Shown: positions 1,553 to 13,644 of the stretch, piece after piece
Position numbering within the stretch: the stretch's first letter is position 1
Layout of the letters: every line of letters starts with the position of its first letter
IMG/VR virus record: IMGVR_UViG_2671181094_000007
Span: 1 to 22,205 of that record
Length of the DNA stretch: 22,205 nucleotides
Source of the DNA: a virus
Lineage: Duplodnaviria > Heunggongvirae > Uroviricota > Caudoviricetes
Reading direction: 5' to 3' (one strand)
Made by a program: the position numbers and the translations under genes
Notes under the pieces: model-generated
Database searches by the model: none
What the model was told of the DNA's origin: nothing
Seen by the model: only the letters and a program-made list of their open reading frames with translations

Positions 1553-1741
1553 TCACGAGGACTGAAGTTTCTCGCAATTAAAATTTATCAGTTTTACTTT
1601 CTGCTCTCTGGAAACGCCTGCTTCTTTTTTACCTGAGAGCATTTTTTCGCATTCTGATTTCGTTAGTTTAGATTTTGAATATCTTGTCCAGTTAGTAGGA
1701 GTGCCACCTTCCTTTTCAATTGTAGCGGTAATTTTATACAT
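1553..1741 (-). CDS. Small hypothetical protein (YdaC-like position), 62 aa
   Basis: ORF beginning MYKITATIEKEGG with GGAGG 5 nt upstream of the ATG; the start overlaps the last codons of ralR. Lies between xis and ralR, where ydaC sits in Rac; identity by position only. Confidence 0.45.
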   Translation of the reverse strand: MYKITATIEKEGGTPTNWTRYSKSKLTKSECEKMLSGKKEAGVSREQKVKLINFNCEKLQSS

Positions 1742-1940
1742 GAACGCCTCCATTAATATTTTCAGTGGTTCGTTTATTCCATCTTTCGAGCGCTTCTTTT
1801 TCACTTCCACCATAGCCAGTTCGGGATTCGCATCCGTTGCATTTTGCCCGGTAATATCCTGAAATGTCTTTCACCGTTACTGATGGACAACCACAAAACG
1901 GACATGGTTTAACATCGTCATATCTCAAAGTTTTTGTCAT
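1734..1940 (-). CDS. ralR: Restriction alleviation protein RalR/Lar family, 68 aa
   Basis: MTKTLRYDDVKPCPFCGCPSVTVKDISGYYRAKCNGCESRTGYGGSEKEALERWNKR with a four-Cys zinc-ribbon-like pattern; position between recT and xis as in Rac. Confidence 0.8.
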   Translation of the reverse strand: MTKTLRYDDVKPCPFCGCPSVTVKDISGYYRAKCNGCESRTGYGGSEKEALERWNKRTTENINGGVHV

Positions 1941-8884: not shown

Positions 8885-9673
8885 ATGGCTTCAAACTGGA
8901 TAAAGCTCGAAGTTATTACGCCGGATAAGCCGGAAATATTCAGGCTTGCTGAGATTCTGAATATTGATCCAGATGCCGCATTAGGGAAAGTCATTCGCTT
9001 CTGGGCATGGGCGGATCAACAAATGATAGACGGTAACGCAGAGTGTAACGCTCGAGGCGTTACAAAAAGTGCAATAGACCGTATCACTTTTATGGCTGGT
9101 TTTGCTGATGCGTTAATTCAGGTTGGATGGCTGGTCGAAAGTGATGGAGTGCTTTCACTACCAAACTTTGAGCGTCATAACGGAAAAAGCTCGAAAAAAC
9201 GGGCGGTTACAAACGAGAGAGTTACAAAAATACGCGAACTGAAGCGAAAAGGTAACGCTGCCAGCGTTACACAAACGGATCAAAAAGCGTTACCAGAGGA
9301 AGAGGAAGAGGAAGATATAAATACTGATCTCCCCCTAAATCCCCCTCGGCAAAAACGAGCGTCTAAACAATTCGAGCCGGAGGCCATTGCTCTGCCCGAC
9401 TGGTTGCCAGAAACACTCTGGAATGAGTGGGTCCAGTTCAGGCAGGCATTGCGAAAACCGATTCGAACGGAGCAGGGCGCTAACGGGGCGATACGGGAAC
9501 TGGAAAAATTCCGCCAGCAGGGTTTTACCCCTGAGCAGGTGATTCGACACAGCATCGCCAATGAATACCAGGGCTTGTTCGCGCCGAAAAGTGTTCGGCC
9601 TGAGACGTTGCTCCGACAGGTTAACACTGTCTCGTTTCCGGACAGTGCGATCCCGCCAGGCTTCAGGGGGTAA
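8885..9673 (+). CDS. ydaU: Replication protein, lambda O-position (YdaU-like), 262 aa
   Basis: MASNWIKLEVITPDKPEIFRLAEILNIDPDAALGKVIRFWAWADQQM... with an acidic EEEEEED linker between two domains; immediately upstream of the DnaC-like gene. Confidence 0.8.
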   Translation: MASNWIKLEVITPDKPEIFRLAEILNIDPDAALGKVIRFWAWADQQMIDGNAECNARGVTKSAIDRITFMAGFADALIQVGWLVESDGVLSLPNFERHNGKSSKKRAVTNERVTKIRELKRKGNAASVTQTDQKALPEEEEEEDINTDLPLNPPRQKRASKQFEPEAIALPDWLPETLWNEWVQFRQALRKPIRTEQGANGAIRELEKFRQQGFTPEQVIRHSIANEYQGLFAPKSVRPETLLRQVNTVSFPDSAIPPGFRG

Positions 9674-9679
9674 CTGACC

Positions 9680-10426
9680 ATGAAAAATATTGCGACAGGC
9701 GGCGTTCTGGAACGTATCCGCAGACTGGCCCCGCCACATGTAACCGCGCCATTCAGGACGGTGGCGGAGTGGCGCGAGTGGCAACTTGCAGAAGGCCAGA
9801 AACGTTGCGAGGAGATCAATCGCCAGAATCGTCAGTTGCGGGTGGAAAAAATTCTGAATCGCTCCGGCATCCAGCCGTTGCACCGCAAATGCTCGTTTTC
9901 GAATTACCAGGTGCAGAACGACGGCCAGCGATACGCGTTGAGCCAGGCGAAATCCATCGCCGATGAACTGATGGTCGGGTGTACAAATTTTGCGTTTAGC
10001 GGAAAACCTGGTACCGGAAAAAACCATCTGGCGGCGGCTATCGGGAATCGCCTGCTGAAAAACGGTCAGACAGTGATTGTGGTTACCGTGGCTGATGTTA
10101 TGAGTGCTCTACACGCCAGCTATGACGACGGGCAATCAGGCGAAAAATTTTTGCGGGAACTGTGCGAAGTGGATCTGCTGGTTCTTGATGAAATTGGCAT
10201 TCAGCGCGAGACAAAAAACGAGCAGGTGGTACTGCACCAGATTGTTGATCGCCGGACAGCGTCGATCCGCAGCGTGGGGATGCTGACAAACCTGAACTAT
10301 GAGGCCATGAAAACATTGCTCGGCGAGAGGATTATGGATCGGATGACCATGAACGGCGGGCGATGGGTGAATTTTAACTGGGAGAGCTGGCGCCCGAATG
10401 TTGGTCAGCCAGGAATTGAGAAGTAA
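9680..10426 (+). CDS. ydaV: DnaC-like replicative helicase loader ATPase (YdaV-like), 248 aa
   Basis: Walker A GKPGTGKNHLAAAIG and Walker B DLLVLDEIG motifs; follows the O-like gene by 6 nt. Confidence 0.85.
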   Translation: MKNIATGGVLERIRRLAPPHVTAPFRTVAEWREWQLAEGQKRCEEINRQNRQLRVEKILNRSGIQPLHRKCSFSNYQVQNDGQRYALSQAKSIADELMVGCTNFAFSGKPGTGKNHLAAAIGNRLLKNGQTVIVVTVADVMSALHASYDDGQSGEKFLRELCEVDLLVLDEIGIQRETKNEQVVLHQIVDRRTASIRSVGMLTNLNYEAMKTLLGERIMDRMTMNGGRWVNFNWESWRPNVGQPGIEK

Positions 10427-11670: not shown

Positions 11671-12027
11671 ATGGAAATAAAACCAGAGGATGAGTTAAGC
11701 AATATCGTTTTATTTCCGGTAAAAGAGGATGACCCTCGTAATCAGGTTAATTTTCTTTATGAGCCATCGGAAAGACCATATTGTTATCACGCCTCTGTCC
11801 GGGTTGACGAAAAAGAGCGTCAGGTCCGCTGTAAAATCTGCGGTGCAGTTGTGGAGCCATTTGACTGGATGCTCTCTGTGGCGAAAAGAGAAACCAGACT
11901 GGCAGATGATGTAAGGCTCTTGCGTCAGGAGGAGCGGGAAAGGCGAAAAAATATAGAAAAGCTAATTCAGATTGAGCGTAACGCGAAAGCGCGGATACGC
12001 AGGGCGACAAAATCCAGAACTGAATAA
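11671..12027 (+). CDS. Hypothetical protein, 118 aa, Cys/His cluster plus basic coiled-coil tail
   Basis: ATG at 11671 preceded by AAGGAGAGG; MEIKPEDELSNIVLFPV...YCYHASVRVDEKERQVRCKICGAVVEPFDW... then an Arg/Glu-rich C-terminus. A start at the GTG at 11614 cannot be excluded. Confidence 0.5.
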   Translation: MEIKPEDELSNIVLFPVKEDDPRNQVNFLYEPSERPYCYHASVRVDEKERQVRCKICGAVVEPFDWMLSVAKRETRLADDVRLLRQEERERRKNIEKLIQIERNAKARIRRATKSRTE

Positions 12028-12120
12028 TTAAATTTAGCTCTGTTAAAAATTTAATCCTTAACCGGAGGGATTTCTGCACCCTCAGAACATCAGGAGGCCG
12101 CCCGAAAGGGCGGTAGTTAA

Positions 12121-12303
12121 ATGCGAAAGTTTAAAATAATTATTGAAACGGGAATAGCCGGTGGAGATTTCGAGGATGAATTCGAAGTGGATGATGATGC
12201 GACGCCTGATGAAATACATGACGAAGCAAAAGATATTTTCTTTAACTACTGCAATTACTCATATCACGAAATAAAAGACGAAGAGGAAGAACAAAATGGC
12301 TGA
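12121..12303 (+). CDS. Hyper-acidic small protein, 60 aa
   Basis: MRKFKIIIETGIAGGDFEDEFEVDDDATPDEIHDEAKDIFFNYCNYSYHEIKDEEEEQNG: about 20 Asp/Glu against 5 Lys/Arg. A GC hairpin (12097-12114) sits between an AGGAGG and the ATG. Confidence 0.45.
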   Translation: MRKFKIIIETGIAGGDFEDEFEVDDDATPDEIHDEAKDIFFNYCNYSYHEIKDEEEEQNG

Positions 12304-12472
12304 TTTTGGTTCAACTAAATACAACGTCAGTTTTGAAGAATGGCATGAACTGTTAATGGACTATGCAGAGTTACGTGGTGGCAGTGCTGCTGATGCTGAA
12401 GCATGGCGTGATGATTATGAAGCAGGAAAAACTCCGGTCGAAGCATATTGTGATGAGTGGGGCGATGAATGA
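12296..12472 (+). CDS. Hyper-acidic small protein, 58 aa (absent from the ORF track)
   Basis: Hand translation from the ATG at 12296: MADFGSTKYNVSFEEWHELLMDYAELRGGSAADAEAWRDDYEAGKTPVEAYCDEWGDE then stop. Start overlaps the upstream stop (ATGGCTGA) and its stop overlaps the next ATG (ATGA), suggesting a coupled chain. Confidence 0.45.
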   Translation: MADFGSTKYNVSFEEWHELLMDYAELRGGSAADAEAWRDDYEAGKTPVEAYCDEWGDE

Positions 12473-12785
12473 GCGAGGTTAATTATCAGGAAGGGCATGA
12501 AACGGCGGGGCAAGCAAAAACAGTGGCATGGCGATATCGCTACGTGAAAAAAAAGGCGTTACGGACTTTCAGGGGAAGTAGTGGTCTGGTGACTGGAAAT
12601 ATGTACCGAAAAAAGAGGATTGTAACGACAGGCCGAACTATGAAATTCAGGCCTTATTCACTGCCCCGCCAGTCCCGGTTACATCAGAAGAACTGGTTAA
12701 AGCTGTGCACTTTTATGAACAACTAAAACGCGAAAATCCACCAGCATCCGGAAACCTGATTACAGATTCCCAGATAAGGCAATGA
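12469..12785 (+). pseudogene. Interrupted ORF: frame-1 start (12469) and protein-like frame-0 continuation (to 12785) meet at an A_AAA_AAG heptamer; either a programmed -1 frameshift gene or a 1-nt indel pseudogene
   Basis: Frame-1 ORF MSEVNYQEGHETAGQAKTVAWRYRYVKKK... turns basic and low-complexity after about codon 48. The -1 frame from 12609 reads EDCNDRPNYEIQALFTAPPVPVTSEELVKAVHFYEQLKRENPPASGNLITDSQIRQ and contains no ATG. The frames meet at A AAA AAG (12609-12615). Confidence 0.3.
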
Positions 12786-12955
12786 GCTACCTGGCGCAGA
12801 ACGGGCTGATAAGTATGGGGAATGTTTTACGATGAATATTTAGACTAAAGAGTTTGTAACGCTATGTAAGTGATTTTTTCTGGTTTAGATATTTATATGT
12901 CCGGCCAAATTGAGGTGTGTTTAAATGTAATTGCACATTGATTGTAGGAGGAATA

Positions 12956-13135
12956 ATGAAAAACGCATTGCAGTTTTTGTTTGTTGCGTTCTGGTTGTTC
13001 GTATCATGTATGCCCATCATCTTCACAGCAAGGTATATGGAAAAAGTTGATGTTTTGATATTAATATTTGGATATATAAATGCCCTTTTTTTAGGGGTGT
13101 TCATGGCGGTCATGTGCATTGAATACTGGCGGTAA
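12956..13135 (+). CDS. Small hydrophobic membrane protein, 59 aa, two predicted TM helices
   Basis: GGAGG 6 nt before the ATG at 12956; MKNALQFLFVAFWLFVSCMPIIFTARYMEKVDVLILIFGYINALFLGVFMAVMCIEYWR; AT-rich codon usage. Confidence 0.45.
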   Translation: MKNALQFLFVAFWLFVSCMPIIFTARYMEKVDVLILIFGYINALFLGVFMAVMCIEYWR

Positions 13136-13393
13136 ATACAGCGAACGCCATTGGTTTAGTTGGATATTTACTGTGCCGGACAAAAACGGTTTGCGGGGAA
13201 ATCTTAGTTAAGTAGAATGACTGCGGGTGCTTGAGGCTATCTGTCTCAGGCATGAACACCAAAAGGCAGATAGAGAAAAGCCCCAGTTAACATTACGCGT
13301 CCTGCAAGACGCTTAACATTAATCTGAGGCCATATCTATGCGACACATAGAGATTAGCCTCTTACGGACCGAAAGGTCAAGGAGAAGCAGGCT

Positions 13394-13549
13394 ATGAAGC
13401 AGCAAAAGGCGATGTTAATCGCCCTGATCGTCATCTGTTTAACCGTCATAGTGACGGCACTGGTAACGAGGAAAGACCTCTGCGAGGTACGAATCCGAAC
13501 CGGCCAGACGGAGGTCGCTGTCTTCACAGCTTACGAACCTGAGGAGTAA
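13394..13549 (+). CDS. hokD: Hok-family type I toxin (HokD/RelF-like), 51 aa
   Basis: MKQQKAMLIALIVICLTVIVTALVTRKDLCEVRIRTGQTEVAVFTAYEPEE: single TM helix and conserved Hok C-terminus. A 19-codon upstream ORF (MRHIEISLLRTERSRRSRL) ends overlapping the hok ATG, mok-like. Confidence 0.85.
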   Translation: MKQQKAMLIALIVICLTVIVTALVTRKDLCEVRIRTGQTEVAVFTAYEPEE

Positions 13550-13619
13550 GAGACCTGGCGGGGGAGAAATCCCTCGCCACCTCTGATGTGTCAGGCATCC
13601 TCAACGCACCCGCACTTAA

Positions 13620-13644
13620 CCCGCTTCGGCGGGTTTTGTTTTTT
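13620..13644 (+). terminator. Rho-independent terminator downstream of hok
   Basis: CCCGC-TTCG-GCGGG stem-loop followed by TTTTGTTTTTT. Confidence 0.6.

Follow-up and report, generated by a model that had tools for sequence, protein, structure and literature searches.

The DNA analysed here is a stretch of 22,205 nucleotides of a tailed phage (Caudoviricetes; IMG/VR record IMGVR_UViG_2671181094_000007, positions 1 to 22,205), called the window below. It is a Rac prophage inserted at ttcA, 99.5% identical to E. coli CH4796 over 99% of its length and more complete than the Rac of K-12. Two overlapping open reading frames (ORFs) of this prophage, ORF1 and ORF2, encode very small and very acidic proteins. 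We found that both are real genes under purifying selection, and that they are two independent modules, of two different families, which are joined in this Rac prophage. Each protein is tentatively read as a stand-alone acidic binder or inhibitor of a host protein, and the rival explanations are weighed against this reading.

Two small acidic genes and their translation signals

ORF1 (12121-12303, plus strand) encodes a protein of 60 amino acids, MRKFKIIIETGIAGGDFEDEFEVDDDATPDEIHDEAKDIFFNYCNYSYHEIKDEEEEQNG, with 9 Asp, 11 Glu and 5 Lys/Arg (net charge -15); the total of 20 acidic residues and the DDD and EEEE runs agree with a preliminary description of this DNA. ORF2 (12296-12472, plus strand) encodes 58 amino acids, MADFGSTKYNVSFEEWHELLMDYAELRGGSAADAEAWRDDYEAGKTPVEAYCDEWGDE, with 7 Asp, 9 Glu and 4 Lys/Arg. 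For this protein the preliminary description had counted 17 acidic residues where 16 are present, and the charge of -13 to -15 that it gave for each protein holds for ORF1 and is slightly too negative for ORF2 (-12). The computed isoelectric point (pI) is 4.05 for both. When all 79 ATG-started ORFs of at least 50 amino acids in the six frames of the window were ranked by acidity, ORF1 (33% Asp/Glu) and ORF2 (28%) took the first two places, and the next most acidic ORF had 19%.

The overlapping stop and start codons that had been described for these two ORFs are present at both junctions. The 8-nt overlap ATGGCTGA (12296-12303, plus strand, read from the sequence) places the start of ORF2 inside the end of ORF1, with the ATG of ORF2 at 12296 and the TGA of ORF1 at 12301-12303, and the TGA of ORF2 (12470-12472) shares an ATGA with the next ATG at 12469. 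This overlap suggests that the translation of ORF2 may be coupled to that of ORF1. ORF2 also has a Shine-Dalgarno sequence of its own, GAGG at 12283-12286, 9 nt 5′ of its ATG; it is formed by GAA/GAG codons of the acidic EEEE tail of ORF1, and the tail thus doubles as a translation signal.

The ribosome-binding region of ORF1 (12092-12120, plus strand) consists of a Shine-Dalgarno sequence, AGGAGG, at 12092-12097, 23 nt 5′ of the ATG, and a 7-bp hairpin with a GAAA loop (12097-12114) which lies between the two and ends 6 nt 5′ of the ATG. The local fold of 45 nt has an energy of -15.9 kcal/mol (z = -3.5). If formed, the predicted hairpin would bring the Shine-Dalgarno sequence near to the ATG, with an effective spacing of about 6-7 nt, an arrangement which resembles the 'bridged' ribosome-binding site of T4 gene 38. 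The Stx phage ArgO145 and the copies of Qin-type prophages have exactly the same block of TCAGGAGG, hairpin and ATG despite differing upstream DNA, so the block travels with ORF1. It is absent from the ORF1 homologues of Klebsiella and Serratia, which have an ordinary close Shine-Dalgarno sequence.

Purifying selection is seen in both genes. Compared with a copy of about 90% identity (locus L093), the ratio of nonsynonymous to synonymous change (dN/dS) was 0.07 for ORF1 and 0.16 for ORF2, and homologues at 40-60% identity retain the length, motifs and charge across different host phyla. The exact ORF1 and ORF2 proteins each occur on at least 1000 contigs, and 2114 of 5426 complete E. coli genomes (~39%) contain the 352-nt pair. 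In the same genome search 544 records had their best match to the pair in the 80-90% identity band; the sampled full-length records of this band were Qin-type, and some of its records were ORF2-only plasmid copies. Both genes are pseudogenes in the Qin-type cryptic prophages of E. coli and in Shigella flexneri, where the same mutations recur, namely Lys37 to stop in ORF1 and ATG to GTG together with Trp37 to stop in ORF2 (loci L093 3001-3352, L092 3001-3216 and L003 4001-4349). The nonsense mutations common to the two kinds of copy point to one old inactivation that was then inherited, and the death of both genes in decayed prophages indicates that the host does not maintain them after prophage decay. 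This fits a function that is useful to the active element and not to the host.

AlphaFold2 gave confident models of both proteins. The model of ORF1 (mean predicted local distance difference test, pLDDT, 88) has strands at 2-8 and 17-23, a helix at 29-43, an ordered extended segment and a floppy acidic tail, and that of ORF2 (pLDDT 87) is a three-helix bundle with helices at 13-27, 34-42 and 47-55. Each family has a strictly conserved motif (DDAT-x-EE in that of ORF1, GKTP-x-EA in that of ORF2) at the N-terminal end of a predicted helix, where it would act as a structural helix cap. The positions of the other acidic residues vary among the members of both families while their number is kept, and the median net charge is -13 across 47 members of the ORF1 family and -10 across 30 members of the ORF2 family. 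The two proteins were also considered as diverged duplicates of each other, which was rejected with an hhalign probability of 0.1%.

Two families with separate distributions

ORF1 is a member of the Pfam family DUF7167 (PF23768), with 55.1 bits against a cut-off of 24.4 (E 7.9e-15) and with residues 2-53 aligned to positions 1-60 of the 60-position profile. It matches phrog_1997 (E 9e-31) and is named 'DUF7167 family protein' in RefSeq (WP_001224662.1). The match to DUF7167 and PHROG 1997 covers the full length, but the family has no known function, so the membership by itself explains nothing, and no paper mentioning DUF7167 was found in our literature search. Profile searches found members in Klebsiella, Citrobacter, Serratia, Yersinia and Pseudomonas, including prophages of Enterobacterales and Pseudomonas, and tblastn found them in Klebsiella Guernseyvirinae and, at about 42% identity, in Enterococcus Herelleviridae. 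Foldseek of ORF1 against BFVD returned uncharacterised phage proteins only; proteins of phages phAPEC8 and Lactococcus 949 share its fold. On plasmids DUF7167 occurs in only 15 records.

In the Klebsiella Guernseyvirinae (loci L100 and L101, 4001-5525 in both) the DUF7167 gene overlaps the start of a gene for a 454-amino-acid DUF2800 nuclease of the PD-(D/E)XK superfamily, and both lie within a replication module with a gp2.5-like single-stranded DNA-binding protein and a DNA polymerase. This position resembles that of T7 gene 5.9, which encodes a RecBCD inhibitor, before the gene 6 exonuclease; the analogy is one of position only. A general linkage between DUF7167 and exonucleases was considered and rejected, since the Guernseyvirinae neighbour is the only true nuclease and the 'exonuclease' of the Enterococcus phages is a DUF3850/ASCH protein.

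ORF2 is named 'hypothetical protein' in RefSeq (WP_000753060.1) and matched no Pfam family. DUF7167 is already catalogued as a domain of unknown function, and ORF2 is catalogued only within a PHROG: it matches positions 76-137 of the 143-position profile of phrog_519 (E 4.5e-23). A known frameshift fusion between DUF1187 and ORF2 (P0193) suggests that DUF1187 accounts for the N-terminal part of this profile. Exhaustive phmmer searches (E <= 0.001) gave an ORF2 family of 65 clusters at 50% identity, nearly all of them stand-alone proteins of 48-80 amino acids. The view of ORF2 as the C-terminal domain of a longer protein was rejected, the longer forms being read-through or frameshift products of DUF1187 and ORF2, and large proteins with several weak ORF2-like stretches (Flg_new or helicase-associated repeats) were treated as chance matches. 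One variant from E. coli (P0076, 72 amino acids) has an internal tandem duplication of 14 residues, DDYEAGKTPVEAYC, which doubles the third helix.

Klebsiella phage Menlow (gp173) and other Ackermannviridae are among the 198 phage records in which tblastn found relatives of ORF2. Relatives are also on 554 plasmids of PLSDB, 516 of which are predicted to be conjugative. About 412 of the plasmids fall in the 80-90% identity band; a spread of the records of this band consisted of plasmids of ~57-67 kb, and the typing read for one of them, pC2, is IncI2 with mcr-1.1. ORF2 is 87.9% identical to the protein of the IncI2 copies (WP_000753050.1), in which the DUF1187 gene is joined to the ORF2 relative by the same 8-nt ATGGCTGA overlap. 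The IncI2 protein thus shares with ORF2 the 88% identity and the junction; the difference from PHROG 519 is that ORF2 spans only positions 76-137 of the profile. Three IncI2-type plasmids, including pC2 (NZ_LC473131.1) and p08-3918-2, have a fixed order of a CaiF/GrlA-type regulator, DUF1187 and a 58-amino-acid acidic ORF2 relative (L094 1086-1969; L096, which is pC2; L090 4348-5177). This trio heads an array of genes on one strand, in which SPFH and NfeD genes are followed by type IV secretion system (T4SS) and pil genes. More distant relatives (49% identity) stand among tightly overlapping hypothetical genes on large plasmids of Klebsiella and Raoultella. No paper on the ORF2 family, on DUF1187 or on the trio was found in the literature search.

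The preliminary description had presented the two proteins together, and as a functional pair they did not hold up. ORF2 adjoins ORF1 in 83 of 85 loci, with the same junction in 82 of the 83; these loci are nearly all near-identical DNA. Hidden Markov model searches found no ORF2-like gene in the DUF7167 loci of Klebsiella, Serratia, Pseudomonas and a metagenome-assembled genome of Bacilli, and in a neighbour survey that included the Enterococcus phages ORF2 followed DUF7167 only in two E. coli contexts. E. coli itself has a second type of DUF7167 gene which occurs without ORF2, with a zinc-ribbon-like protein directly upstream in most contexts and an unrelated protein of 120 amino acids downstream. 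ORF2 in turn occurs without DUF7167, its relatives standing behind DUF1187 or Ead/Ea22-like genes. An obligate pair was accordingly rejected, and ORF1 and ORF2 are two independent modules. In total, 150 DUF7167 loci fell into 48 distinct contexts with no constant neighbour, which makes an obligate partner encoded next door unlikely.

Other genes of the Rac prophage

The minus strand of the window carries intR, xisR, a DUF1187 gene and ralR, and also recT, recE, racC, ydaE and kilR; these are followed by sieB (plus), ydaF (minus) and a repressor-like gene (minus). The rightward operon on the plus strand begins with a cro-like gene, ydaT, the replication genes, DUF1627, DUF977 and a protein of 118 amino acids with zinc-ribbon-like and coiled-coil parts, and continues with ORF1, ORF2, a frameshifted gene, sok/hok, DUF968, RusA, the Q antiterminator, the lysis genes and trkG. 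The order just before the two genes is a hypothetical gene (9184-9972), ydaV, DUF1627, DUF977, the zinc-ribbon-like hypothetical gene, ORF1 and ORF2. They lie between the replication genes and Q, which bears out the earlier placement just 3′ of the replication genes, in the accessory region of lambdoid phages.

The 118-amino-acid protein upstream of ORF1 (11671-12027, plus strand; phrog_1621) has a C..H...CxxC zinc-ribbon-like motif and a basic coiled-coil tail, and was detected in 80 of the 85 ORF1 loci. It was considered as a Lar-like protein and rejected, as BLASTP against RalR shows nothing. The gene after ORF2 (12469-12785, plus strand) is decayed, as seen in its three-frame translation, with a frameshift at a run of eight A (~12547-12554) and an in-frame stop, and RefSeq describes it as 'frameshifted; internal stop'. 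Its second frame matches phrog_660 (E 1.2e-16), and its likeness to the Ead/Ea22-like gene found after ORF2 in ArgO145 is confined to the first ~16 residues. ORF1, ORF2 and the ORF at 12469 gave no match to Ead_Ea22 (PF13935); only neighbours in other phages match it.

At the left of the window ralR (1734-1928, minus strand), of the Lar family (PF14354; Lar_restr_allev, E 1.3e-14), is followed with an 8-nt overlap by the DUF1187 gene (E 7.6e-39), and the two together occupy 1553-1928 on the minus strand. The RalA antitoxin small RNA (1557-1735, plus strand; Rfam, 218 bits) runs antisense across the DUF1187 gene. DUF1187 follows ralR in this window and precedes the ORF2 relatives on the IncI2 plasmids. 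A small zinc ribbon is also present directly upstream of DUF7167 in a Serratia prophage and in a P. aeruginosa element, where the Lar model matches below threshold (E 6e-5 and 6e-3). These connections of RalR with DUF1187 and an ORF2 relative, and of Lar-like ribbons with DUF7167, make up a weak association network around Lar. They are indirect, and in this window the pair has no known anti-defence gene as a direct neighbour. RalR and the pair share one prophage, in which ralR is followed by DUF1187, but ORF1 and ORF2 are not homologues of Lar and the relation is one of association only.

An unannotated, strongly hydrophobic ORF of 72 amino acids (12917-13135, plus strand), with a GTG start and an internal Met before KNALQFLFVAFWLF, occupies the space between the decayed gene and sok/hok, where the region is richest in AT (34-35% GC). 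It has no PHROG match and may be a small membrane-protein moron, or noise. The type I toxin-antitoxin module of hok/sok type (13225-13549) consists of the sok RNA (13225-13396, plus strand; Rfam, 106.7 bits) and a Hok-family ORF of 51 amino acids after it (13394-13549, plus strand), and a terminator-like hairpin follows at 13618-13635.

Possible roles of the two proteins

ORF1 and ORF2 would be separate autonomous accessory genes that happen to stand together in this Rac prophage and are transcribed with the rightward operon 3′ of the replication genes, presumably in the delayed-early phase. As predicted, the ORF1 product would be a small domain in which a beta-hairpin is combined with a helix and an acidic tail, and that of ORF2 a three-helix bundle of 58 amino acids. 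Each protein alone may bind or inhibit a conserved host protein stoichiometrically, with its densely negative surface attached to a basic one whose usual ligand is probably nucleic acid, and the effect would be that a newly arrived or induced mobile element establishes itself through anti-defence or host take-over. This is our preferred reading, put forward tentatively, since it is somewhat short of an even chance; an anti-defence role within it is possible and more doubtful, and true DNA mimicry as one form of the mechanism is unlikely.

The reading draws on the varying neighbours, the conserved charge and the spread over phages and plasmids, which taken together suggest that the target is supplied by the host or common to many bacteria, and that the role is played when a mobile element enters or takes over the cell. 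The preliminary description had recognised acidic early-region proteins of a mobile element; the acidity turned out to be a conserved trait of both families, each of which is widespread in several kinds of element. Such an occurrence is expected of host-interacting proteins, and the feature common to the elements carrying ORF2 relatives is entry into a new host cell. Anti-defence genes are looked for in early or accessory regions and in mobile elements that have no relation to one another. Both features were seen here: the two genes lie in accessory regions of the classic ea/nin type, and the elements range from temperate and virulent phages to conjugative plasmids.

Several points weigh against this. 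Neither protein has a PADLOC match at E <= 0.1, and the literature searched, two anti-defence screens included, gave nothing on either family. Phages encode many small acidic proteins, the majority of them without an assigned role. The Lar-like matches upstream of DUF7167 are below the Pfam cut-off and may reflect zinc ribbons generally. On pC2 the ORF2 relative is at 58.8 kb and mobC with the relaxase at 13.3-17.9 kb; the IncI2 relative is about 15 kb from the relaxase and the presumed origin of transfer (whose position is deduced), on the same strand as the T4SS genes. As it heads the T4SS array, it is not at the leading-region site that is typical of plasmid anti-defence genes.

The two proteins could instead be modulators of phage development or host physiology, of the kind encoded in the exo-xis, ea and nin regions, acting on lysis-lysogeny, induction or the host cell cycle and not on immunity. 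The neighbourhoods speak for this: in ArgO145 the pair is in the early-left ea-type region directly 5′ of an Ead/Ea22-like gene, in Enterobacter prophages an Ead/Ea22-like gene directly precedes the ORF2 relative at sites near xis/int as well as in the nin region, and the Klebsiella DUF7167 genes follow Ead/Ea22-like genes as well. The lambdoid exo-xis/ea/nin genes also have the same tight packing of overlapping stop and start codons and the same modular shuffling between phages, but both of our families occur outside temperate phages too, and neither matches a named exo-xis protein. Strictly virulent Ackermannviridae and Herelleviridae carry members, and so do conjugative plasmids in the case of ORF2, none of which has a lysogeny decision to make, and we hold this explanation to be rather unlikely.

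The preliminary description had favoured specific DNA mimicry, in which the carboxylates imitate the phosphate backbone and block a DNA-binding enzyme, for example type I restriction-modification, BREX or RecBCD. Ocr, ArdA, T7 gp5.9 and phi29 p56 act as DNA mimics, and the last two have 52-56 amino acids, a size with which ORF1 and ORF2 are compatible. The likeness to this group, with Ugi and some anti-CRISPRs included, is that the proteins are small, have a pI of about 4 and are encoded in early or accessory regions. The high density of Asp/Glu and the low pI of DNA mimics are found in both proteins and kept across both families; the acidic positions 30, 31, 34, 35 and 38 of the ORF1 helix share one face of it, as far as the sequence and the modelled secondary structure show; and the presence of DUF7167 in phages of Gram-negative and Gram-positive hosts fits a target set by the shape of DNA and not by a host-specific protein. 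Negative charge alone, however, is a poor predictor of mimicry. Profile searches of ORF1 and ORF2 against all PDB sequences gave nothing significant, and the mimic-like fold that the preliminary description had proposed to look for did not appear: structures were predicted for both, and no sequence or fold relation to Ocr, ArdA, Gam, gp5.9, p56, Ugi, anti-CRISPR mimics or another solved DNA mimic or anti-defence protein was found. Mimicry as an anti-defence device is a plausible and reasonable hypothesis without structural support, and we consider it unlikely as the specific function of the two proteins.

An acidic partner of a neighbouring basic protein of the same element, such as a chaperone, antidote or regulator, is a further explanation. 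The candidates would be the basic-tailed zinc-ribbon protein upstream of ORF1 and, on the plasmids, DUF1187 or the CaiF/GrlA-type regulator. In its main E. coli contexts, with or without ORF2, DUF7167 is immediately preceded by the zinc-ribbon/coiled-coil protein, the order of the plasmid trio is fixed, and overlapping or closely spaced genes suggest co-expression. Beyond closely related DNA, however, the neighbours change completely, as in the 48 contexts of DUF7167, a further gene intervenes between the zinc-ribbon protein and ORF1 in ArgO145, and ORF1 and ORF2 separate freely from each other, so that a partner of this kind is decidedly improbable. That the two are chance ORFs or decaying remnants without function, as the Qin-type pseudogenes and the decayed next gene of the window might suggest, is contradicted by the conservation data (dN/dS well below 1; length, motifs and charge retained by distant homologues in other host phyla) and by the confident models, and is hardly credible.

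Returning to the preferred reading of stand-alone binders or inhibitors, these data draw their value from the breadth of both families and from the link to the IncI2 plasmids, and not from a demonstrated mechanism. About 39% of complete E. coli genomes carry the pair, hundreds of conjugative IncI2 plasmids have a member of the ORF2 family in a fixed position, and both families reach virulent phages infecting different host phyla, with no functional literature found. It is a possibility, though an unlikely one, that DUF7167 and the ORF2 family are new, have no relation to each other and both inhibit host defence or host nucleases over a broad range, possibly as miniature DNA mimics. If this were true, such inhibitors would be common to temperate phages, virulent Ackermannviridae and Herelleviridae and conjugative plasmids including the mcr-1 IncI2 plasmids, and an uncharacterised gene of 58 codons would contribute to the establishment of a clinically important plasmid class. 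If they are not inhibitors, the two proteins would be typical members of the large pool of unexplained small phage accessory genes. If either protein does inhibit a host defence or nuclease, a very small and widespread family would be added to the anti-defence catalogue, and it could bear on the spread of plasmids and on the host range of phages.

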